Shown here piece after piece: positions 4,910 to 63,903 of a stretch of DNA of 64,000 bases; position 1 is the stretch's first letter; each line of letters begins with the position of its first letter. The notes beneath the pieces are model-generated. The model saw nothing but the letters and a program-made list of their open reading frames with translations. It searched no databases and was not told the origin of the DNA. Where the stretch lies: IMG/VR virus record IMGVR_UViG_3300047289_000086; one strand, written 5' to 3'. Both the position numbers and the translations under genes were made by a program. Source of the DNA: a virus.

Positions 4910-5064
4910 AAATTATGCCTTGGATAACAGGTATTGCCTGTGCACTCTACATATACTCATGGACACAGGGTATCCAGTATGAGGCTTGGACTCCACTAAT
5001 CTGGTGTCTAGGATGCTTTGCTAACGACATACACAACTACTTACAGCACAGATATGAACATTGA
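4903..5064 (+). CDS. small membrane protein
   Basis: Internal ATG at 4903 overlaps the previous stop. Hydrophobic segment PWITGIACALYIY. Confidence 0.45.
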   Translation: MVKIMPWITGIACALYIYSWTQGIQYEAWTPLIWCLGCFANDIHNYLQHRYEH

Positions 5065-5284
5065 ACTGTTACTAAAACAATCTCAGAAAACCGCAGGTGA
5101 AATAGATATTTTACAGTACACAAATTTAATACTGCTAGAGGCTTGTAGGCTTATTAAAGATACACCTACTACCTCAGCGTTTACTACTTTTGATCAGGCA
5201 GTAGCAGAAACACAACGTGCAGACTGCTTCCGTTCAGTGTACGACCAAATTGTAAGGAACATAGATGAACTTGCCACCAAATAA
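5054..5284 (+). CDS. hypothetical protein
   Basis: ATG 5054 overlaps the previous stop. Confidence 0.45.
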   Translation: MNIELLLKQSQKTAGEIDILQYTNLILLEACRLIKDTPTTSAFTTFDQAVAETQRADCFRSVYDQIVRNIDELATK

Positions 5285-5633
5285 ATTTCACTTACCATCA
5301 TACGCACAACTAAAGTCTCCTACTCAAGAAGTACAAGAAGCCGAGATTGAAAAGCCTAACCTGCCTCCTACCTCACTCCGTCAAGCACAAACTAACTGGT
5401 TGTTGGACAAACTGCAAGAAGAAGCGGCTGAGATAATTCAAGCGGTAAGCAAAATCCGTAGGTTTGGTGAAAACGCAAATCACCCTGACCGCACAACTAC
5501 CAACAAACAAGAACTCGTCAACGAACTTGAAGATTTTCTTGCAATTCTCGCGGCTCTTGAATATACTAAGTACTTGGATTTGGTTCCACATCAACAAAAC
5601 ATACTAAACAAAACGCATAAACTAATGCTCTGA
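5265..5633 (+). CDS. MazG-like all-alpha NTP pyrophosphohydrolase (tentative)
   Basis: LQEEAAEIIQAV...ELVNELEDFLAILAALE matches the EExxE / ExxD helix pattern of the MazG family. Its stop codon lies inside a TGACCCTAA motif. Confidence 0.5.
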   Translation: MNLPPNKFHLPSYAQLKSPTQEVQEAEIEKPNLPPTSLRQAQTNWLLDKLQEEAAEIIQAVSKIRRFGENANHPDRTTTNKQELVNELEDFLAILAALEYTKYLDLVPHQQNILNKTHKLML

Positions 5634-5689
5634 CCCTAAGCCATCACAACCATAAACATCACAAATTATGTCCTCACTTAAAATTGTAC

Positions 5690-5719
5690 TTGTTATTATG
5701 TTATCGAATGTGCTATAAT
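5690..5719 (+). promoter_or_regulatory. sigma70-type promoter with extended -10
   Basis: TTGTTA-N18-(TGc)TATAAT, about 190 nt upstream of ATG 5909. Confidence 0.5.
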
Positions 5720-5908
5720 TTAGTATAACTTAAAGAGTTAGAGACTAGGTTGATTTTAAGAATTGATCTAAATTATCGAAACCACGTAATGACGAGCCCA
5801 GCCGAGGAAATCTAGTGAGGTTTGATACAATTTAGGGTCAAGTCCATAAAATCTAAAACTAGTCTCCTTGCTTATCGACTCGAACCATATTTGAAATCAA
5901 ATTATAAA

Positions 5909-6691
5909 ATGCTTTTTAAAAAACAAGAAATACACTCCATTGATTTTACGGGAACTGAACACCTTAATTTGGAAGGTTGGGAAACTTGGTGTGAACAAAT
6001 GCAATTGTCCCACCTTTCTAGCTGGTTGCTGCCCCAATTGGTTGCGTGGTATGGATCGTGGACTTTAGTTTTAGATGACAAGAGCAATTACGATTGCTTA
6101 GCTACAGTTAAATTAAACTGCTCTGACCCTAAGTCTAGGGCATTTTATATGTTGTCACGAGTTAAACGAAGTCTACTAGTTGCACAACAAACTAAAACTC
6201 CTGATTACGCAAGCTTAACTCCACTTATTTTAATGGGGCTAAAACGTATGCAAGGTATTAACTATGAAACCTTTAGGAACTCTAGTGGCTTACAATATAT
6301 ACTAGAACCCAGACTACTAGATGCCCTTGTACTAAGTTCCGAGGATTTGGAAGTGTGTGGCGGTTTAGGGTCAAACAGACTACTAGAAATACAAAAGCAG
6401 GGATTAACTACTAAGTCGGGTAAAACAGCAGGCAGCATAAAACCTGCTAGATCTACTTGGAGCTTGTCAGGAATACAGGATACTGAGATTGCACACTTGC
6501 CCAAACTAACACAAACTATATTAACACAATGTTGGTTAGCTCATCCTGAGCTACGCACACCTTATATGATCTTAGACTTACAAGACTGGGATAGGATGCC
6601 ACAACCACTAGTTACAAACGACATTTTTAAAGCAGTACAAACACAACAACCTAAACAAGAACTGGCAGGAGTACTGCCTTGGGACCTATGA
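5909..6691 (+). CDS. hypothetical protein
   Basis: Long ORF. First ATG is at 5909; the track uses TTG 5822. No clear RBS. Contains two TGACCCTAA copies in opposite orientation. Confidence 0.55.
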   Translation: MLFKKQEIHSIDFTGTEHLNLEGWETWCEQMQLSHLSSWLLPQLVAWYGSWTLVLDDKSNYDCLATVKLNCSDPKSRAFYMLSRVKRSLLVAQQTKTPDYASLTPLILMGLKRMQGINYETFRNSSGLQYILEPRLLDALVLSSEDLEVCGGLGSNRLLEIQKQGLTTKSGKTAGSIKPARSTWSLSGIQDTEIAHLPKLTQTILTQCWLAHPELRTPYMILDLQDWDRMPQPLVTNDIFKAVQTQQPKQELAGVLPWDL

Positions 6692-7041
6692 AATATACCA
6701 AAGAAATAACAGACAAATTGATCGCAGACTACAAAGCAGGAATTGCTGTCCAGCAGATATCAGCAGATTTAAACGTACCAGAACGTTCAGTGATAGCTAA
6801 ATTAAGCTCTCTGGGCGTGTACGTCAAAAAGAGCTATGTCAACAAGCGTGGTGAGACGCCAGTAAAAAAATCGGAGCACATCGAGCGCATTGCAGAACTA
6901 CTGGACGTGGATGAAGAATTGCTAGAATCGCTGGAGAAGGTAAATAAAACGGTATTGAAGCTAATCGAGAACAAATTAGCCCAATCTGACCCTAAATTGC
7001 ACTATACGCGACAAACTGACCACTTATTTGCAGATGTTTGA
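6688..7041 (+). CDS. small HTH protein, paralog 1 of 4
   Basis: ATGA overlap with the upstream ORF. Shares DYKAG..V..IA..L....RSVIAKLS..GVY.KK.Y..K.GE.PVKK with ORFs 8435, 9389 and 13411. Confidence 0.65.
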   Translation: MKYTKEITDKLIADYKAGIAVQQISADLNVPERSVIAKLSSLGVYVKKSYVNKRGETPVKKSEHIERIAELLDVDEELLESLEKVNKTVLKLIENKLAQSDPKLHYTRQTDHLFADV

Positions 7042-7073
7042 CCCTAAACTGCGTTAATTTGCCCTAAGAACAC

Positions 7074-7110
7074 AAAAGCCTACTTAATTTGCGTTAAGTA
7101 GGCTTTTTTA
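7074..7110. terminator. bidirectional intrinsic terminator
   Basis: AAAAGCCTACTTAA / TTAAGTAGGCTTTT 14 bp stem, T6 on the + strand, A-run on the other side. Confidence 0.75.
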
Positions 7111-7192
7111 CGTCTATTCTAATCAGGTCTAAGCGGGCGTCTAATCGGGTAAGCTTGTTGCGGTTTAGGGTCAGACGCTGAAGAAAATGCAC

Positions 7193-7222
7193 TTGACAAA
7201 CAAGGTTTACCACTTGTATAAT
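7193..7222 (+). promoter_or_regulatory. cassette A promoter
   Basis: TTGACA-N18-TATAAT followed by GGCGCA. Near-identical to the promoter at 9027-9056. Confidence 0.65.
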
Positions 7223-7228
7223 GGCGCA

Positions 7229-7317
7229 GGACCTCGAAGATTTTGCACTTGCGTTTTGGCGCAGTAAATTGCGGGCAAAACAAAAGCCCCTACATCTTGC
7301 GGACGTAGGGGCTTTTG
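7229..7317 (+). ncRNA. candidate ~90 nt sRNA (cassette A)
   Basis: Runs from the promoter at 7193-7222 to the terminator at 7283-7317. No ORF. Homologous to the 9063-9130 segment (TTTTGCAC..GGCGCAG..AAATT). Confidence 0.4.
7283..7317. terminator. bidirectional intrinsic terminator
   Basis: AAAAGCCCCTAC / GTAGGGGCTTTT stem. Tail TTTTG on the + strand and TTTTGTTTTG on the - strand. Confidence 0.75.
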
Positions 7318-8197
7318 AAAGCTTGACCAGTGCACTGGCGGTTATCTTTTTTAACTCTAGCAGGATTTTTAAGGGAATCACCACAACCTGACCCTAAACC
7401 GTAGCCTGTCGCTACATACGACCTCTGGGGATGAATCCATCGCGAAGTTGCCTAGGTGAGCTTTGCACGTTTCGGCTCTGTCAACCGCTACAAGAACTGC
7501 GAGCAGTGTTGTTGGGTATGCTGAGTATCCGTGACTAACTAGTTTAGATTTATGTGGTTCCGCACAACTGTTTTTTCAATTATTTTAACGACCCGCCACA
7601 GTTTAGGGTCAGCGCACCATTATTTAAGCACCCGTAGCTAGGTCTTGTGCATATTAAGAAAGTATGGCTGCCACCGTACTTAATCGCCAGAGAGATTCCA
7701 TACTCTCATTACAGTCACTAAAGTCTGCTCTTGGTTAGAAGATAGCTGTATTTATTTAAGGAGTTCTTTCTCCTAGAGGTTCCTACCTTGTTGTTACCTC
7801 AAAACCAGTTTCCAGTTTTTAACTAACTCATAGAGGAGTCGGCATGGGATATAGGCGGAACATGCTGCCTAGTACTACTACTTTCCTAACACCAGCAAGT
7901 GGTACACGCTAGGGGTTTCGTCCTGACCCTAAGGTACAGCAGGTTATGAGGTTTGAAGTCTCAATGACCTACTGTGAAGTCTTGGGTTTCGCTGAAATTT
8001 CATCAGCTCATCAGAGGATTATAAAAGGGCTGCAACTTAAGTCTTTCAGTCGCAATTAAAAACTTATCCAGTTACGTGTAGAGCTGGTCTTGGTTTACCC
8101 AATCTGTAGGGGGCTGTGGCTCGGACAATTATTCCCCACAATTAAGACGCATAGCAGATATATCCCGCTTCCGCTGTCACCCTTATTCATCAATTTA
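7283..8197 (-). ncRNA. candidate ~0.9 kb non-coding RNA
   Basis: No ORF of 60 aa or more in any frame over 7385-8392. The - strand promoter at 8204-8232 points into it and the terminator at 7283-7317 closes it. By hand count the core 7380-8160 is G+C-richer than the flanks. Confidence 0.4.
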
Positions 8198-8203
8198 TAA
8201 GTA

Positions 8204-8232
8204 ATTATACACTATTTAGATAACTACTTCAA
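8204..8232 (-). promoter_or_regulatory. sigma70-type promoter (P2 of the ORF-free block)
   Basis: Reverse complement reads TTGAAG-N17-TATAAT. Confidence 0.55.
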
Positions 8233-8374
8233 GTAAAAAATTAGACACTCGTTGCAATCAGACTACTCACAAAACAGACTATTGATAAGTTGAGAGGTTG
8301 AGGTGATAATCATTTGCAGACGGACACCAACTTTCATTGGTATTCATTAAGCCCTTCCCGACTGTCTAATATAT

Positions 8375-8403
8375 ATTATACTTGAAAAACAGTTGAAGAT
8401 CAA
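8375..8403 (-). promoter_or_regulatory. sigma70-type promoter (P1 of the ORF-free block)
   Basis: Reverse complement reads TTGATC-N17-TATAAT, just downstream of the stop of gene 8435..8743. Confidence 0.45.
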
Positions 8404-8434
8404 GTCAATATTTTTTGACCCTCAACTGTTGCAA

Positions 8435-8743
8435 TCAACGCAGGTTCTGGAGGATTGCTTCCAACACTTCGTGGTTGGCTTTCTCCAAAGAGTCGAAAGT
8501 CTCTGGAGCAACACCAACACGGTTGGCGATTGCGTCAACAAGGTCAGCCTTCTTGACACGAGCAACACCAGAAGTCTTAGACTTAGGTGTGTAAACTCCC
8601 TCACGAGAGAGTTTGGCAACCACTGAGCGAGTGGTCTTGCCGAACATTGTTGCCAATGTTTCGACAGTAGCGCCAGCTTTGTAGTTGGCAACGAGCTGAG
8701 CTGTTTGCTCAGGTGTATAGTTCACGGGTTTGTCAGTCATCAT
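8435..8743 (-). CDS. small HTH protein, paralog 2 of 4
   Basis: NYTPEQTAQLVANYKAGATVETLATMFGKTTRSVVAKLSREGVY. AAAGGA RBS before ATG 8743/8740. Own promoter at 8782-8810. Confidence 0.7.
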   Translation of the reverse strand: MMTDKPVNYTPEQTAQLVANYKAGATVETLATMFGKTTRSVVAKLSREGVYTPKSKTSGVARVKKADLVDAIANRVGVAPETFDSLEKANHEVLEAILQNLR

Positions 8744-8781
8744 ATGTCCTTTCAAATGGTTTCTGTGCTGTTTAAAGATTA

Positions 8782-8810
8782 ATTATACTCTTAAAAGGGA
8801 ACATCGTCAA
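8782..8810 (-). promoter_or_regulatory. sigma70-type promoter
   Basis: Reverse complement reads TTGACG-N17-TATAAT, upstream of HTH paralog 2. Confidence 0.6.
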
Positions 8811-8925
8811 ATTCAAAAAATTCGTCGTGATCGTTGGTACAGACGAAAACTTCCGATAGTTCTGCACCCGCAAATTCTCTGAAATAGTCTTCCTGAATTT
8901 GTGCGTAAAATTCATGTTCTGTCAT
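8791..8925 (-). CDS. very acidic 44 aa protein (below the ORF-track cutoff)
   Basis: Hand translation MTEHEFYAQIQEDYFREFAGAELSEVFVCTNDHDEFFEFDDVPF. AAAGGG RBS. Own promoter at 8955-8983. Confidence 0.4.
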   Translation of the reverse strand: MTEHEFYAQIQEDYFREFAGAELSEVFVCTNDHDEFFEFDDVPF

Positions 8926-8954
8926 CTCAGAGCCCTTTCTATCTAATATGTATT

Positions 8955-8983
8955 ATTATACAAAATTTGAAAAAATTCAACAA
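8955..8983 (-). promoter_or_regulatory. sigma70-type promoter
   Basis: Reverse complement reads TTGTTG-N17-TATAAT, upstream of the acidic 44 aa ORF. Confidence 0.5.
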
Positions 8984-9026
8984 GTGCAAAGTTTTTGACG
9001 TGAGCTAACCGCCGCTGAAAATCTAC

Positions 9027-9056
9027 TTGACACATCAAGGTTTACCACTGTATAAT
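9027..9056 (+). promoter_or_regulatory. cassette B promoter
   Basis: TTGACA-N18-TATAAT followed by TGGCGCA. Divergent from the - strand promoter at 8955-8983. Confidence 0.65.
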
Positions 9057-9062
9057 TGGCGC

Positions 9063-9222
9063 ACACGCACCAACGGAAAAATTCCCCAAGTTTTTGCACT
9101 GGCGCAGAAAATTTCTGCGCCCAAATAGTACAAAAGTAGTAGTCGCTTTAAGCGACCGTAATCAGGTCTAATCGGGTATTTAAACGGGTAGGGTCGCTTT
9201 AAGCGACCGTTGCGTTTTTGCA
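9063..9222 (+). ncRNA. candidate sRNA (cassette B), 3' end uncertain
   Basis: Hairpins GGCGCAGAAAATTTCTGCGCC and two GTCGCTTTAAGCGAC copies. The second copy is followed by GTTGCGTTTTTG. Confidence 0.35.
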
Positions 9223-9267
9223 ACATAAATTTTGGCGCCGAAGTGAGTGCTCACTTCGCTTGGAGAT

Positions 9268-9305
9268 AATAAAAAACCGATTATCTGATTATGTCAGATA
9301 ATCGG
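9268..9305 (-). terminator. intrinsic terminator of HTH paralog 3
   Basis: CCGATTATCTGA / TCAGATAATCGG stem, followed by a T-run on the - strand. Confidence 0.65.
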
Positions 9306-9388
9306 GGAAAATAGATTACTGGGATTTTAACCCAGATTCCCGATAATAAAAATCGGATATTAAATATTATATGATAATCTATTATTCA

Positions 9389-9709
9389 TTATATAGGCTT
9401 AGAATTAGCTAATGCCTCGAAAATCACTTTTAAGGCATTTTTATTAGCCTTAGTTAATGATTCAATATCATTTTCGGGTAATCGCAAAATCGCCCCAATA
9501 GCATCTGCATGAATATCTTTTTTAATCGCAGATTCTCCGTTTTTGGTTTTATATTCTTTTTTAATATAAACCTTTTCACGAGATAATTTAGCGACAATAC
9601 TCCGAACAGTTTTACCAAGATTATCAGCGATAATCTCAACTGATAATCCTGCCTGATAATCGGCAATAATCTGAGCAGTTTGCTCAGGGGTATAATTAAT
9701 GTTTTTCAT
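9389..9709 (-). CDS. small HTH protein, paralog 3 of 4
   Basis: NYTPEQTAQIIADYQAGLSVEIIADNLGKTVRSIVAKLSREKVY. Followed by the terminator at 9268-9305. Confidence 0.7.
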   Translation of the reverse strand: MKNINYTPEQTAQIIADYQAGLSVEIIADNLGKTVRSIVAKLSREKVYIKKEYKTKNGESAIKKDIHADAIGAILRLPENDIESLTKANKNALKVIFEALANSKPI

Positions 9710-12016: not shown

Positions 12017-12168
12017 TAATGTATTCTCTTAGTTAATATGTCTAGAATCTGTCTTAATGGCATTTGCATTATTTCCGATATATCATAAAGATTTAAGCCT
12101 TCGGCTAAAAAATCTTTAATTAATGTCTCGGCATAATCAACATTAATGCCCTTGTTTACTTGGTACAT
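12016..12168 (-). CDS. hypothetical 50 aa protein (below cutoff)
   Basis: Hand translation MYQVNKGINVDYAETLIKDFLAEGLNLYDISEIMQMPLRQILDILTKRIH, HTH-like. Overlaps the end of the HAD gene. Confidence 0.35.
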   Translation of the reverse strand: MYQVNKGINVDYAETLIKDFLAEGLNLYDISEIMQMPLRQILDILTKRIH

Positions 12169-12619
12169 ATACACCCCTTATATTAAATCTGTCACAAACC
12201 GCTTTTAAATAAGTTACATTATCTTCATAAAACGTAAATTCAGCATCTTTAAATGTAATTAAATTAAAGAATTTAGCTAAACCATTAATTTTTAATGTAG
12301 CACCTGATATACTAGAACCTTCAGTTCTTGAAATAATATAATCAGGTTCACCCAATACCGAGTCAATAAATGTATAATCAGGGGTATTAAGAACACGGGC
12401 AGTAGCAATAATGACATAACACGATTCATCTTTTAAATCCTTTTTATATTGCTCTGCTAATGGTAAGAGAGAATCATTCAAGGCTAAATCTTGATTTTCT
12501 CTCCAATAATTTAAATCTATTCTCTCGCCATTTTCATCTACGATTGTGCGATACCTATGCAAACTGCAAACAATAGTTCCATCCATATCATAAATTGAAA
12601 CCTTTTTAATTTTAGCCAT
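12143..12619 (-). CDS. HAD-superfamily phosphatase
   Basis: Start MAKIKK after AAAGGA. DxDxT motif YDMDGT. Confidence 0.65.
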   Translation of the reverse strand: MAKIKKVSIYDMDGTIVCSLHRYRTIVDENGERIDLNYWRENQDLALNDSLLPLAEQYKKDLKDESCYVIIATARVLNTPDYTFIDSVLGEPDYIISRTEGSSISGATLKINGLAKFFNLITFKDAEFTFYEDNVTYLKAVCDRFNIRGVYVPSKQGH

Positions 12620-12711
12620 TTTGTAATCCTTTTCTGTTATTGTCCCCATTATACACAAAAACCGCCAAAAAAACCATGTGTGCTAAAATACAACATAGGG
12701 GTTTACACCTA

Positions 12712-13410: not shown

Positions 13411-13737
13411 TTACAAGGTCTTTTCAGCCTTGATAAAATCAGCAATTTTCATCAAAGCAATTTTATTTGCTTTAGTGAGTGATTCTGTATCAGCTTCAGT
13501 CAAGCCTAGTGCATTACCGATAAAATCAGCGTGAACATCCTTTTTAATAGGTGTCTCGCCTGATTTCGTTTTGTATGCTTTAGCAACATAAACCTTTTCA
13601 CGGCTCAATTTTGCAACAACAGAACGAACAGTTTTGCCGAATGATTCAGCAATGGTTTCTACGCTAGTGCCAGCTTGATAGTCGGCAACCATTCGAGCAG
13701 TTTGCTCAGGCGTGTAATTCACAGTTTTGGTAGTCAT
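13411..13737 (-). CDS. small HTH protein, paralog 4 of 4
   Basis: NYTPEQTARMVADYQAGTSVETIAESFGKTVRSVVAKLSREKVY. Terminator at 13382-13410. Confidence 0.7.
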   Translation of the reverse strand: MTTKTVNYTPEQTARMVADYQAGTSVETIAESFGKTVRSVVAKLSREKVYVAKAYKTKSGETPIKKDVHADFIGNALGLTEADTESLTKANKIALMKIADFIKAEKTL

Positions 13738-15476: not shown

Positions 15477-15950
15477 ATGACCACTCATTTACCTGCAGAA
15501 ACTGTACGCATCAGCCCCGAAGCACTAGAAGTTGCCAATGCCTACCTGCAACTTAATGATGCCAGAGCCGTTGCCCAAGAATTAGATCTAGACCCTGAAG
15601 TGGTAACTAGTTTATTAGCTAAACGTGAAGTAAAATCATATATTGATTCAGTATTCTTCGATTCAGGCTATAACAACAGATTTTTAATGCGACGTGCTAT
15701 GGATGCACTAATTAAACAAAAGTTCTCGGAACTAGAAGAATCACAAACTGGTTCAACCAAAGATATTGCTGAACTGCTACAAATGTCCCATAAAATGTCA
15801 ATGGACTTAATGGATCGTGAAATTCAGCTAGCCAAAGCGCAACAAGCTGTTGGCCCACAAAAGCAAGTTAACGTTCAAATCAATGACGCACTAGACGGAT
15901 CAAAGTACTCACAACTAGTGCAGCGTTTAATCACTGGTGAAGGTGTGTAA
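15477..15950 (+). CDS. terS: terminase small subunit (by position and HTH-like N-terminus)
   Basis: First gene after the promoter at 15428-15456. 157 aa, N-terminal HTH-like region. Confidence 0.6.
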   Translation: MTTHLPAETVRISPEALEVANAYLQLNDARAVAQELDLDPEVVTSLLAKREVKSYIDSVFFDSGYNNRFLMRRAMDALIKQKFSELEESQTGSTKDIAELLQMSHKMSMDLMDREIQLAKAQQAVGPQKQVNVQINDALDGSKYSQLVQRLITGEGV

Positions 15951-16747
15951 TGTTGCCTACTACGTATCGCTCAATATTTATTAGCGATGTACACTTAGGC
16001 ACTCGTGACTCACAAGCAGACCGCTTAAACAATTTTCTCAAACACAACACCTGTGACACCCTATATCTTGTAGGCGATATCATTGATGCTTGGAAGATTC
16101 AACAGAACAAATGGCGTTGGAAGCAGAGCCATACCAATGTGGTACGAAGAGTATTAGGTCATGCTAAACGTGGAACTCGCGTTGTTTACATTGCAGGCAA
16201 TCATGACGAGTTTTTGCGACCCATGATACCTTATGGTTTCAGTTTTGGACTAGTAGAGATACACAATCAAATCGAGCACATAGGTGCTGATGGCAAACAC
16301 TATTTAGTAACACACGGCGACTTATTTGACGGAATTACTCGTTTAGCGCCTTGGATAGCGTTTTTAGGAGACAAGGCATATGACGCAGTTTTATCACTCA
16401 ACTCTAAATATAATTGGATACGTCGTCGTTTGGGTTTTGGGTACTTTAGCCTTAGCAAGTTCCTTAAGCACAAGGTCAAAAAAGCTGTAGATTTTATGTT
16501 TAAGTTTGAGCAGAATCTAGCTGGTTACTGTAAAAAACGAGGATATGACGGAGTAATATGTGGACATATACATCATGCAGAAATTAAAGAGATTGATGGT
16601 GTCGCATACATGAATGACGGAGACTGGGTGGAGTCATGTACTGCACTTGTAGAACATCACGATGGACGTTGGGAAATCGTAACATGGACAAGGAGTAGTG
16701 ATGAACCTAAGCGAGAAGATAACAATAGTAATACCCTCGAAAAATGA
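15950..16747 (+). CDS. LpxH-family calcineurin-like metallophosphoesterase
   Basis: Motifs ISDVHLG, LVGDIIDAW, GNHDEF, THGD and GHIHH occur in the order typical of the UDP-2,3-diacylglucosamine hydrolase family. Confidence 0.75.
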   Translation: MLPTTYRSIFISDVHLGTRDSQADRLNNFLKHNTCDTLYLVGDIIDAWKIQQNKWRWKQSHTNVVRRVLGHAKRGTRVVYIAGNHDEFLRPMIPYGFSFGLVEIHNQIEHIGADGKHYLVTHGDLFDGITRLAPWIAFLGDKAYDAVLSLNSKYNWIRRRLGFGYFSLSKFLKHKVKKAVDFMFKFEQNLAGYCKKRGYDGVICGHIHHAEIKEIDGVAYMNDGDWVESCTALVEHHDGRWEIVTWTRSSDEPKREDNNSNTLEK

Positions 16748-17411
16748 GGAAAACTATATAGCCCATTTACTAGATAACCTAATAACTCAAGAAGTTGGTT
16801 TTACTAAGATTATTGTGGCTGATTGCTCTACGGACAAGACTCGTAGTGTAATAGACTTATATCGACCACGCCTTAACATTGAAGTTATTGAAGGCGGACC
16901 AGTTAGCTTAGCAAAGAACCGGGGTGCTAAATTAGTTAATACTCCCTACATTTTATTCATCGATGCTGATGTGCGTTTCTTTAAGTCTACAGTTATCTAT
17001 GATGCAGTCAATGCACTAGAAGCTGAAAACTTAGACTTGGTTGGATTAAATGCCAAGTGTTATGACGGTGACATACGAGCACAAATTGGTTTCTCCGCAT
17101 TTAATGTAATAAATCACGTACTAAAACACTTTTCGCCATTTGCAGTCGGTGCATTTATGTTAACGCGCCGTGACAAGTTTATAGAACTAGGCGGATTTCC
17201 TGAACAGTTTGCTACTAGTGAAGATTACTTCCTGAGTCGCAAGTACAGTGTTAACAGGTTTAAGTTACTTAATCACTACTTTGGACAAGACTCACGTAGG
17301 TTTCGCAAGATGGGTTATTTTGGTATGTCAAAGTACTTAATCAAGAATTTCTGGAATCGCAACAACAAAGCTTATTGGGATAACCTAGACTCTTCAAAGT
17401 ACTGGACTTAA
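16698..17411 (+). CDS. family 2 glycosyltransferase
   Basis: ITIVIPSKNEE...DCSTDKT...FIDADV is a GT-A fold signature. Confidence 0.8.
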   Translation: MMNLSEKITIVIPSKNEENYIAHLLDNLITQEVGFTKIIVADCSTDKTRSVIDLYRPRLNIEVIEGGPVSLAKNRGAKLVNTPYILFIDADVRFFKSTVIYDAVNALEAENLDLVGLNAKCYDGDIRAQIGFSAFNVINHVLKHFSPFAVGAFMLTRRDKFIELGGFPEQFATSEDYFLSRKYSVNRFKLLNHYFGQDSRRFRKMGYFGMSKYLIKNFWNRNNKAYWDNLDSSKYWT

Positions 17412-17412
17412 A

Positions 17413-18006
17413 ATGCTACCACAAATTGGAGACGTGGATGTATACGACAAAATCAATCCCGAAGACCTTTGGTGTGCAGATAAACTTATTTTAGCCAAAC
17501 GACTAGGATACTACTGCGGCCCAGCAGGAATAGCCCCCAAACCAGGTAAGTATATAGTACGCCCAGTAATAAACTTAAAAATGATGGGTGTTGGTGCTAC
17601 AGTAGAATATTTAGACCGCGACTCAATTCCTGATGGTTATTTTTGGTGTGAAGTGTTCGAAGGCCGACACTTGAGTTTTGACTACAACTACGGCAAGCAA
17701 ACCTTAGCAGTTGAAGGATTTAAAACCAATCCACATCGACTTGACAGATTTTCACACTGGAGCCGTGTTCAAGACATTTTCGAACTACCACCAGTACTGC
17801 AAACAGTAGCAGAGAAATACCCTTGGTTTAATGTTGAGGCTATTGGCGACAAGGTAATAGAAGTACACTTCCGTTACAACGATGATTTTGCAAATCATAC
17901 CGCTCAAACTATTGTACCCGTATGGCAAGACGAATTCTATGCTAGTGAGTGTGGAGACCGTTTAGGTTTTATATTAATAAAGGATACTGATGCTAAAAGT
18001 GCTTAA
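17413..18006 (+). CDS. hypothetical protein (possible ATP-grasp fold)
   Basis: 197 aa. YIVRPVINLKMMGVGA and NVEAIGDKVIEVHFR resemble ATP-grasp strands (weak). Confidence 0.5.
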   Translation: MLPQIGDVDVYDKINPEDLWCADKLILAKRLGYYCGPAGIAPKPGKYIVRPVINLKMMGVGATVEYLDRDSIPDGYFWCEVFEGRHLSFDYNYGKQTLAVEGFKTNPHRLDRFSHWSRVQDIFELPPVLQTVAEKYPWFNVEAIGDKVIEVHFRYNDDFANHTAQTIVPVWQDEFYASECGDRLGFILIKDTDAKSA

Positions 18007-18149: not shown

Positions 18150-19436
18150 ATGTTAGTAGTCTCACGACCAGATATCAATGTCGATGTTATACAAGAGTTT
18201 GATCCTCAACAGAGGTTTATTAAGCTACCCATAACAAATTACTTAAAACTGTTGGATGTATACGACACAATCAATCGCCCACAGGTTGCACTCATAAACG
18301 CAGTCAACGATCCCAAATACAGGTTTATCTGTGCTGCACTAGCACGCAGGCTTGGCAAAACTTATATTGCCAACATCATTGGTCAGTTAGTTACACTTGT
18401 ACCTGGCAGTAATGTGCTGATCATTTCACCTAACTATAACTTATCTTCAATATCATTTGAACTCCAACGCAAACTCATCAAACACTTCGACCTCGAAGTC
18501 GCACGTGACAACCTCAAAGACAAAATTATCGAACTCAGCAACGGTTCTACCATTCGTATGGGTTCTCTTAGTACCGTTGATAGTACTGTTGGTCGATCAT
18601 ATGACTTAATCATATTTGATGAGGCTGCCCTAGGCGAAGGCGGTGAAGCAGCTTTTAATGTTGCGCTTAGACCTACACTAGACAAGCCCCAAGCCAAAGC
18701 CATTTTTATCTCTACACCTCGTGGTCGTAACAATTGGTTTTCGCAGTTTTGGCAGCGTGGATTTGATCCAGGTTTCCCCGAGTGGATATCACTGCAAGCA
18801 GATTACACTGAAAATACCCGCATGGCTGAGTCAGACGTTGCCGAAGCGCGACGCTCAATGTCAAAGTCAGAGTTCGAACAAGAATATTTAGCCTCATTTT
18901 CCGTATTTGAGGGTCAGATTTACACACTACAGGATACAGATGTTATTGACATTCCAGAAGATATTAAAGGCGAAGCGTTTGCTGGATGCGACCCTGGTTA
19001 CCGAGACGCTACTGCTTATTGCGCTATCGTTTACGATTGGAACCGCGATTGCTTTTTTATTGTCGACGAATACTTAAAGTCGGAAAAAACTACAGCAGAA
19101 CACGCAGAAGCATTTACTCAAATGAATGAGAAACACGGAGTTGAAGTTACTTTTATTGACTCGGCAGCTGCACAGTTTGCAGGTGACTTGGCTTATCTCT
19201 ACAACATTTCAACTACCAAAGCTAAAAAAGATGTCTTACCAGGCATTGCGTATGTTCAGACCTTGTTACAACAGGGTCGATTAAAGGTTGCTCCACATTG
19301 CACTAACGTGCGAGCCATGTTTGACCAGTATCGCTGGGACCAACGTGAGGGGCTCCAGCGTGAGCGTCCAATGCATGATGATTATAGTCACATGGCCGAT
19401 GCCGTCAGATATGCGCTGTATACCTATACTGTTTAA
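18150..19436 (+). CDS. terL: terminase large subunit
   Basis: Walker A-like RRLGKT, Walker B LIIFDEAA, C-terminal nuclease-like domain, 428 aa. Confidence 0.9.
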   Translation: MLVVSRPDINVDVIQEFDPQQRFIKLPITNYLKLLDVYDTINRPQVALINAVNDPKYRFICAALARRLGKTYIANIIGQLVTLVPGSNVLIISPNYNLSSISFELQRKLIKHFDLEVARDNLKDKIIELSNGSTIRMGSLSTVDSTVGRSYDLIIFDEAALGEGGEAAFNVALRPTLDKPQAKAIFISTPRGRNNWFSQFWQRGFDPGFPEWISLQADYTENTRMAESDVAEARRSMSKSEFEQEYLASFSVFEGQIYTLQDTDVIDIPEDIKGEAFAGCDPGYRDATAYCAIVYDWNRDCFFIVDEYLKSEKTTAEHAEAFTQMNEKHGVEVTFIDSAAAQFAGDLAYLYNISTTKAKKDVLPGIAYVQTLLQQGRLKVAPHCTNVRAMFDQYRWDQREGLQRERPMHDDYSHMADAVRYALYTYTV

Positions 19437-45412: not shown

Positions 45413-45443
45413 ACTGGGATTAACCCTAAACTGTACTGTCCAA

Positions 45444-63408: not shown

Positions 63409-63903
63409 ATGATAGATCCAATTACCGCACTAGCGGGGATACAATCAGCCATTTCAATGGTAAAGAAAGCTGCGCAAGTTGCTAACGATTTAGGGTCATT
63501 GGCTCCTATGATCGGTAAAATGTTTGATGCTAAGAGTACGGCTACTAAAGCTTTAATGGAAGCAAAGAAGTCTAAAAAAGGTTCAAACATGGGTACTGCT
63601 CTTCAAATTGAAATGGCACTAGAGCAAGCCAGGGCATTTGAAGAAGAACTTAAAATGTTGTTTATGCAAACAGGCAAAATAGATGTTTGGAATAAAATTA
63701 AAGCTCGTCAAGCAGAAATGGATGCAGACGATGCCAATGAAGTGCGACTTTTTAACGCTGAAGAACGTAAACGTAAACAAAAAGAACAAGAACTAAATGA
63801 GTGGGCCATAATACTAAGTGTTTGTGGATTTATACTATTCTTAATGTTTGTTGGCGGATATGAAATGATGCAGTATTGTGAAACTCACAGGTGTGGCAGA
63901 TGA
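63409..63903 (+). CDS. hypothetical protein with C-terminal TM anchor
   Basis: 164 aa, coiled-coil middle, C-terminal WAIILSVCGFILFLMFVGGY. Confidence 0.5.
   Translation: MIDPITALAGIQSAISMVKKAAQVANDLGSLAPMIGKMFDAKSTATKALMEAKKSKKGSNMGTALQIEMALEQARAFEEELKMLFMQTGKIDVWNKIKARQAEMDADDANEVRLFNAEERKRKQKEQELNEWAIILSVCGFILFLMFVGGYEMMQYCETHRCGR

Follow-up and report, generated by a model that had tools for sequence, protein, structure and literature searches.

What is a nine-nucleotide word doing ten times within 2.3 kb of a viral genome, in alternating orientation, when it recurs exactly only once in the rest of the sequence? The question is raised by a 64,000-nucleotide stretch of IMG/VR virus record IMGVR_UViG_3300047289_000086 (hereafter the window), in which the word TGACCCTAA forms an array between positions 5631 and 7932. 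We take the copies to be protein-recognition boxes on DNA, located at the junction of pre-early and early genes and probably serving the A2-like paralogs encoded nearby, a reading to which sequence comparison lends, in our judgment, an even chance. A preceding sequence-only reading had reported ten exact copies in this interval, for a word expected less than once on both strands. That count holds: the window contains 11 exact matches (starts at 5631+, 5832-, 6124+, 6365-, 6987+, 7039+, 7165-, 7389+, 7603-, 7924+ and 63490-) against 0.36 expected, and none of 100 shuffled sequences reached 11. The cluster of ten occupies 3.6% of the window, and its orientation series + - + - + + - + - +, also confirmed, is the maximal alternation attainable with six plus and four minus copies (P = 5/210 = 0.024 by our own count). 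The extension to TGACCCTAAAC(C/T)G in five copies (6365, 7039, 7165, 7389 and 7603) was recovered as described, as were the exact copy at 63490 and a one-mismatch copy at 45421 outside the cluster; in all, one-mismatch copies elsewhere number 19, which with the exact copies makes 30 in the class of zero or one mismatch versus ~13 expected by chance. Spacing between copies is irregular (52-622 bp). The copies at 5631 and 7039 do supply the TGA stops of open reading frames (ORFs) 5265-5633 and 6679/6688-7041, and those at 6124 and 6365 do fall within ORF 5909-6691; the statement that the rest lie in an ORF-free block was wrong for two of them, the copy at 6987 being inside a small helix-turn-helix (HTH) gene (6688-7041) and that at 5832 in the 5' leader of the gene starting at 5909.

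The repeated word proved to be the core of an asymmetric two-part box of ~22 bp, Y-TGACCCTAA-ACYG-NNN-CAA-N-Y, supported by 72 unique instances from seven sites and by 294 unique instances clade-wide. The first C of the CAA part is less firm, the full-form consensus being Y-TGACCCTAA-A-C-Y-G-NNN-(C)-A-A-N-Y, and the three-base NNN spacer varies freely between oriented instances. Alignment of 12 genomes defined eleven orthologous sites, A to K, at which position and orientation are maintained:

5630-5651, plus strand: box A (core 5631-5639), between a MazG-like gene and the promoter at 5690-5719.
5820-5841, minus strand: box B (core 5832-5840), in the structured 5' leader of gene 5909-6691.
6123-6144, plus strand: box C (core 6124-6132), inside ORF 5909-6691, codons D-P-K.
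6353-6374, minus strand: box D (core 6365-6373), inside ORF 5909-6691, codons L-G-S.
6986-7007, plus strand: box E (core 6987-6995), inside the 3' end of the A2-like gene HTH1.
7038-7059, plus strand: box F (core 7039-7047), its TGA being the HTH1 stop, just before the bidirectional terminator 7074-7107.
7153-7174, minus strand: box G (core 7165-7173), exact in 12 of 12 genomes.
7388-7409, plus strand: box H (core 7389-7397), exact in 12 of 12 genomes.
7591-7612, minus strand: box I (core 7603-7611).
7924-7932, plus strand: box J; the minus strand reads UUAGGGUC/A (the slash marks cleavage) and provides, in a predicted hammerhead ribozyme, the cleavage site together with the 3' strand of helix III.
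8415-8436, plus strand: box K (core 8416-8424), in the one-mismatch form TGACCCTCA in 11 of 12 aligned genomes.

Relatives were collected as eight IMG/VR matches through the 260-amino-acid protein encoded at 5909-6691, and further ones were reached by way of a 30-mer conserved in the noncoding DNA and of a metagenome look-up; megablast and tblastn matched neither the region nor this protein to any annotated phage record, and a search of 185,579 reference genomes found no relative. The alignment of relatives that had been proposed as a check was carried out on the 12 genomes and showed the copies to be conserved in place and orientation. A profile built from the small HTH proteins led to more than 488 loci in IMG/VR, and loci whose A2-like protein is only 52-70% identical still have 3-10 copies in the same arrangement and synteny. 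All relatives, the 12 close ones as well as the distant ones, are colinear, and the contigs of several end within or near the array, at scattered positions.

Throughout these genomes the boxes survive as islands in indel-rich DNA and within divergent or frame-shifted coding sequence, a pattern that we read as selection on the nucleic acid and not on the encoded protein. Four observations underlie this view. Box A stands unchanged amid indels of tens to more than 100 bases, and in relatives it lies downstream of the stop codon that it supplies here for ORF 5265-5633. Box C was lost in relative L003, where a replacement copy stands ~30 nt upstream in the opposite orientation, and in L075 it is shifted by ~8 codons and read in a different frame, as LTLK where the window has DPK. 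In the divergent locus L016, which encodes a 342-amino-acid homolog with an unrelated N-terminal half, boxes B and C and a one-mismatch D are still found in the same order and orientation; box B is moreover exact in 10 of the 10 genomes covering its site. Finally, the TTA (Leu) and GGG (Gly) codons of box D are invariant in 10 genomes, in a gene in which only 23% of the degenerate codons with an invariant amino acid are codon-invariant. Conservation is equal for the two box orientations, as would fit a site that is recognized in duplex DNA; we favor such recognition also because the consensus extends to CAA and the flanks of the boxes lack complementarity to those of their partners.

Two of the boxes stand at promoters. 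The end of box G lies 18 nt upstream of the -35 element of a perfect-consensus promoter, at a conserved spacing, and box K lies 11 nt downstream of the stop codon of HTH2 and 11 nt upstream of the -35 element of a minus-strand promoter, a distance to -35 that is identical in the distant L075. More distant relatives have the exact word TTAGGGTCA at the same place as site K, and boxes G and K have the same orientation relative to transcription. The promoters predicted in the noncoding block are as follows:

7193-7222, plus strand: consensus sigma-70 promoter TTGACA-N18-TATAAT, with terminators at 7281-7317 and 7327-7352 right after it.
8375-8403, minus strand: promoter of a small structured RNA, with conserved hexamers and a variable spacer.
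8204-8232, minus strand: conserved promoter, predicted to drive the hammerhead-containing RNA.

Two further observations concern the box sequence. A degenerate K-like element (TAGACACTC-GTTGCAATCAG) occurs at 8240-8262, just upstream of the minus-strand promoter 8232-8204, and has GTTGCAATCA in common with the flank of box K (8426-8435). In L092, five tandem telomere-like units of ~10 nt (ATATTTAGGG and close variants), each repeating the TTTAGGG part of the box, lie between boxes at 6755+ and 7226-.

Which protein might read such a box? By its gene content the phage is a distant relative of T5: its TerL shares 49% identity with the TerL proteins of T5-like Vibrio phages, a homolog of the T5 pre-early gene dmp lies at 12143-12658 (E = 3.6e-12), and orthologs on a 103.7-kb relative match the families Phage_T5_A2 (PF26822), T5_Nicking_endo (PF26848), and T5_dNMPase and T5_Terminase_small (between them PF26823 and PF26880). 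The layout runs from a pre-early-like block (A2-like genes, dmp) through a 1.4-kb noncoding block to oppositely transcribed early genes; positions 7042-8434 contain no ORF, and identity among relatives reaches 85-98% over 7700-8400 versus 60-85% in the flanking genes. Four A2-like paralogs are encoded around the block:

6688-7041, plus strand: HTH1, A2-like paralog on the early-gene side of the noncoding block.
8435-8755, minus strand: HTH2, T5 A2-family protein.
9389-9709, minus strand: HTH3, A2-like paralog.
13411-13737, minus strand: HTH4, A2-like paralog.

The putative recognition helix RS(V/I)(V/I)AKLS is invariant in the four paralogs, each of which is predicted to consist of two small three-helix domains with a basic linker between them. 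It is the ortholog of HTH2 on the 103.7-kb relative that matches PF26822 (Phage_T5_A2); HTH2 has 2,061 homologs, and among the matches listed most of the closest carry this family. A profile of the paralogs aligned with T5 A2 (hhalign) at E = 6.4e-5 over 99 columns, nearly the full length, and when T5 A1, A2 and other pre-early proteins were compared with the window by tblastn, dmp alone matched, the A2 likeness appearing only at the profile level. An AlphaFold2 (AF2) model of HTH2 (predicted local distance difference test, pLDDT, 85) consists of two three-helix bundles (residues 11-47 and 65-100) and a basic linker, so far as the model goes a plausible architecture for a two-domain A2-like protein that reads a two-part asymmetric box. 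The top rows of the fold search include the two-HTH domains of Tc3, Pax, IstA and SETMAR, none of them significant and to be taken as a lead only; a sequence profile search of the PDB with the A2-like protein gave nothing below E = 0.1.

Tc3/mariner transposase, the Pax paired domain and IstA of IS21 place bipartite two-HTH domains on asymmetric sites of ~20-26 bp. As in these systems, the protein predicted here has two three-helix bundles and a basic linker, its presumed target is an asymmetric two-part box, and the targets occur in inverted pairs that dimers could join. None of the structural matches is significant (TM ~0.36 for the best), and, unlike Tc3/mariner and IS21, the A2-like proteins have no catalytic domain and the locus shows no sign of mobility.

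The setting has a counterpart in T5. Repeat Region 3 of T5, with its injection-stop signal (iss), lies between the first-step operons and the early genes (Heusterspreute 1987; Davison, bioRxiv 10.1101/866236), the untranslated repeat region is conserved above the neighboring ORFs, and the A2 protein is a DNA-binding dimer required for the second step of DNA transfer (bioRxiv 10.1101/866236). Here as in T5, a large and well-conserved noncoding block separates the pre-early (A2, dmp) from the early genes and holds many short conserved boxes; those of T5 comprise eight DnaA 9-mers, arranged as inverted repeats of one another, and a 15-bp box, TGTGCAAATCCGACA, that occurs nine times. The T5 region is linked to A1/A2-dependent two-step DNA transfer. 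The two blocks differ in that ours has another box sequence, has no DnaA boxes (paired in T5, in the inverted repeats IRC/IRD) and shares no detectable sequence similarity with the T5 block. Unlike in T5, a single box is used, in alternating orientation, and the array reaches 1.4 kb into two genes; A2 is represented by four paralogs versus one, no A1 homolog was found, and the block houses a hammerhead and small-RNA promoters.

Operator sites for one of the adjacent small HTH proteins were among the roles first put forward for the repeats, and this is the role, as yet a predicted one, that box shape, site-by-site conservation, the position of G and K at promoters and the A2-family domains of the proteins favor. 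Our working hypothesis is that one HTH domain would read TGACCCTAAAC, while the second domain or the linker would read CAA about one helical turn away. Dimers of A2 could join adjacent boxes that face opposite ways and lie 120-330 bp apart, with small loops of DNA between them, and boxes G and K would set the activity of strong sigma-70 promoters for local noncoding RNAs. The looped complex may mark the end of the first-entering DNA and may take part in the A2-dependent resumption of DNA transfer or in the switch from pre-early to early expression. What the sequences show is the box with its conservation and placement, the hammerhead, the T5-like context and the membership of the HTH proteins in the A2 family; we infer the identity of the binder, the looping and any effect on transcription or DNA entry. 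A more ambitious version, in which the array is a cis element for A2-type proteins in two-step entry, at the inner end of the first-entering DNA, its loops hold or release the DNA and switch promoters, and one box doubles as a hammerhead cleavage site, a single sequence thus serving the protein as DNA and the ribozyme as RNA, is tentative and, in our estimate, rather unlikely to be correct in full.

Several points weigh against recognition by A2-like proteins. The binder is assigned from adjacency and family alone, and the family assignment to PF26822 rests on precomputed matches; the hhalign probability to T5 A2 is only 64%, the fold search with HTH2 returned no match at E <= 0.001 (best E = 0.28), and tblastn detected no A1 homolog in the window. 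A dimer usually reads a palindrome, and the box is asymmetric. Sites H, I, J and C have no CAA part, and only two or three of the 11 boxes are promoter-proximal. The invariance of the motif across a wide clade would fit a conserved host protein as well. Lastly, it is by analogy with T5 that the array could be placed at the inner end of the first-step DNA.

Among the alternatives, an RNA-level element deserves the most attention, although we regard it as unlikely. According to this explanation, copies of opposite orientation pair (A:B, C:D, F:G, H:I, J:J' and K:K') and organize noncoding RNAs or mRNAs for processing or for alternative structures related to a hammerhead. It gains its force from the following elements:

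7921-8018, minus strand: predicted hammerhead ribozyme, type I arrangement, supported by covariation.
7981-7987, minus strand: J' (ACCCAAG), the 5' strand of helix III, a degenerate box copy in opposite orientation to J.
8393-8403, minus strand: K' (TTGAAGATCAA on the plus strand), degenerate partner of K, overlapping the -35 (TTGATC) of promoter 8403-8375.

The minus strand from 8018 to 7921 reads UCCU-CUGAUGAG-(helix II)-CGAAA-CCCAAG...CUUAGGGUC/AGGA, with a long helix III and a predicted cleavage site between C7925 and A7924 (GUC/A), within copy J. The Rfam model RF00008 (Hammerhead_3) scores this segment at 19.8 bits, below its gathering threshold of 48.5, likely because of the long insert in helix III; at gathering thresholds Rfam found nothing in the whole window, nor did ARAGORN. 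The three-helix structure shows covariation in 14 close sequences, in which the core CUGAUGAG ... CGAAAC ... GUC/A is invariant, and none of 500 shuffles reached the observed scores; the minimum free energy fold of the isolated sequence reproduces the three-way junction. A covariance model retrieved 35 more distant loci with the hammerhead, in which 87.8% of cells are paired, sliding controls collapse, and both members have changed in 22 of 29 pairs, of which three belong to helix I and four to helix II. Most of the distant loci keep the canonical core; a few carry CUGACGA or GUA variants, and some of the matches are truncated or partial. Within helix III, J' reads ACCCUAAAC in L067 and L093, and the variants of copy J in L001 and L007 are compensated.

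The motif resembles the intergenic hammerheads of phages (Perreault et al. 2011, PMC3088659), with which it shares the canonical core CUGAUGA, GAAA and GUC, three covarying helices and a phage intergenic location, in some relatives right after a tRNA-Glu gene. Unlike those, it has an unusually long helix III, with a base formed by the box that is found at ten further places as DNA; its Rfam scores fall below threshold, and it accounts for copy J only. A literature search turned up no work connecting hammerheads with T5-like phages. A tRNA-Glu(UUC) gene immediately precedes the hammerhead in L075 and L059, which points to a role in transcript processing; the ribozyme probably processes a small-RNA or tRNA transcript, to judge from this gene order. 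Trans-cleavage of the other boxes was considered and rejected: only H and J are followed by the AGG needed for helix I, and helix III remains closed within the ribozyme after cleavage.

Pairing between boxes is thus documented for J:J', which is helix III of this covariation-supported hammerhead, and for K:K', a terminator hairpin with compensatory changes just after the A2-like gene HTH2. RNAalifold pairs H with I on both strands, making an H:I pairing possible at the RNA level, the nearly strict alternation is itself conserved, and at pair 3 of helix III C-G has changed to U-G on the strand that carries the A2-like gene. However, pairing does not call for the same sequence at all copies in all phages, and it leaves the CAA part and the variable spacer unexplained. 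Partner-specific complementarity outside the box was looked for and not found, the flanks of neighbors matching at 4.18 of 12 positions versus 3.96 for non-neighbors, and at 2.93 versus 2.85 of 11. Moreover, box A lies upstream of the promoter that transcribes B, box G lies beyond the terminator that follows F, a single hammerhead core is present in 5300-9000, and the replacement for box C in L003 has the opposite orientation. The earlier suggestion that mutually complementary segments build long-range helices therefore stands for J:J' and K:K' and fails as a general explanation: RNA helices account for J and K, perhaps for H:I, but not for the array.

A second alternative, which we consider improbable, keeps the boxes on DNA and assigns them to a host protein that arrests the entering DNA, the counterpart of the DnaA-box model for the injection-stop signal of T5. 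The array does occupy the same position as Repeat Region 3 with its inverted DnaA 9-mers, and the box is invariant while phage proteins diverge to ~52% identity. Yet the box is not a DnaA box, no DnaA box (TTWTNCACA) is found in 5000-9500, no relative turned up among the reference genomes searched, and the DnaA model lacks proof even for T5; the constancy of the box follows equally well from the invariant recognition helix that the phage paralogs share.

A replication origin, in which the boxes would be iterons for a phage initiator, is a distinctly doubtful third. One candidate initiator would be the product of the gene that houses boxes C and D, which is also the alternative candidate for the binder:

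5909-6691, plus strand: gene of the 260-amino-acid protein, housing boxes C and D.

Initiator genes often house their own sites, as do lambda O and SPP1 G38P. In keeping with such a role, C and D are retained inside the gene despite sequence turnover, and strong promoters and processed RNAs adjoin the array. But the 260-amino-acid protein has no recognizable fold: it matches no Pfam or PHROG family, its 302 homologs are all annotated as hypothetical, and its AF2 model (pLDDT 51.5) is not fit for a fold search. The P4 ori/crr type I octamers and other iterons are likewise short asymmetric words, repeated in the two orientations across a region with a gene in it; unlike them, the array has no initiator signature, its spacing (52-622 bp) is irregular and its orientation alternating, in contrast to phased direct iterons, and the neighborhood contains no replication genes. 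Nor are there DnaA boxes in the cluster, the cumulative GC-skew minimum lies near 15 kb, away from the array, and the origins of T5 map near the center of its genome. The proposal of iterons, which also came from the sequence-only reading, is accordingly left with weak support. As a side observation, the family of the 260-amino-acid protein exists in two forms of ~260 and ~340 amino acids (5909-6691 in the window; 423-1451 in L016 and 7844-8863 in L093), whose N-terminal halves are unrelated and whose common, strongly conserved C-terminal half reads GL..K.G..AG...W.L.G...TE...LP.L.Q..L.Q.W.AHP.

Recognition sites of a T5-type nicking endonuclease are a very unlikely explanation. A homolog of the T5 enzyme (PF26848) is encoded, and the major 7.9% nick of T5 falls within its repeat region; T5 nicks, however, are confined to one strand and distributed over the genome (PMC10644984), whereas here the orientations alternate and 10 of the 11 copies cluster, and the annotated T5 nick sequence, CCTGCGCT, is unrelated. 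Crossover sites of a shufflon-like multi-inversion system, which the short inverted repeats in alternating orientation had called to mind, can be set aside as scarcely credible, given the colinearity of all relatives, close and distant, a neighborhood with no recombinase, and two opposed copies, C and D, inside one conserved ORF that an inversion between them would destroy.

The noncoding DNA around the array has further features of its own. Promoter 7193-7222 and the two terminators that follow it would yield an RNA of ~60-90 nt that contains a variable insert; a second promoter, paralogous to this one, occupies 9027-9056, and a box TAATCAGGTCTAA.CGGGTA is present at both 7120-7151 and 9159-9190. 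A candidate small RNA, 90-98% conserved, extends over ~8222-8368 on the minus strand from promoter 8403-8375, with a long-range stem UAGACAG.../...GUGUCUA followed by U6 and with compensatory changes in an inner hairpin. At 9311-9381, also on the minus strand, a tRNA-like segment scores 37.7 bits with the Rfam tRNA model, above the gathering score, when only 3.9 kb are scanned, and is missed by ARAGORN and by the whole-window scan at gathering thresholds. The leader of the 260-amino-acid protein gene (5726-5908, plus strand) is highly conserved, with compensatory changes (ACCACGU/GUGGU to ACCCCGU/GGGU, and ACCUCU/AGAGU) and a long-range pairing of GAGACUAG (5742) with CUAGUCUC (5860), and it may be a regulatory RNA element.

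Two observations lie farther from the array. The pre-early blocks of L040-L102 contain recurring words, per 6-12 kb up to 17 copies of AAACAAAAG(TA), up to 15 of ATAATTTTG(GC) and nine of (GAT)GTTATAACA, which may be promoter or regulator elements. In the window, the gene of the small terminase subunit (15477-15950) is separated from that of the large one (18150-19436) by three ORFs at 15950-18006, one of them metallophosphoesterase-like; in relative L023 the same two genes adjoin each other, so that this stretch is an insertion.

If the boxes are indeed bound by A2-like proteins, the consequences would reach beyond this phage. T5-type phages inject their DNA in two steps, and neither the cis-acting stop signal nor the DNA target of A2 has ever been defined. 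The clade described here, with more than 488 loci and ~2,000 A2-like proteins, offers a simple, conserved array of 22-bp boxes at the T5-equivalent place, beside four A2 paralogs. It also presents one short sequence put to several uses, as a DNA box, as a ribozyme helix and cleavage site, as a terminator stem and as stop or sense codons. The pairing of protein and box is directly testable, and the result would be transferable to T5. If, further, the array acts in two-step entry as in the more ambitious version above, it would be the first defined target of A2, and the stop and restart of T5-type injection, unexplained for decades, would become directly testable.

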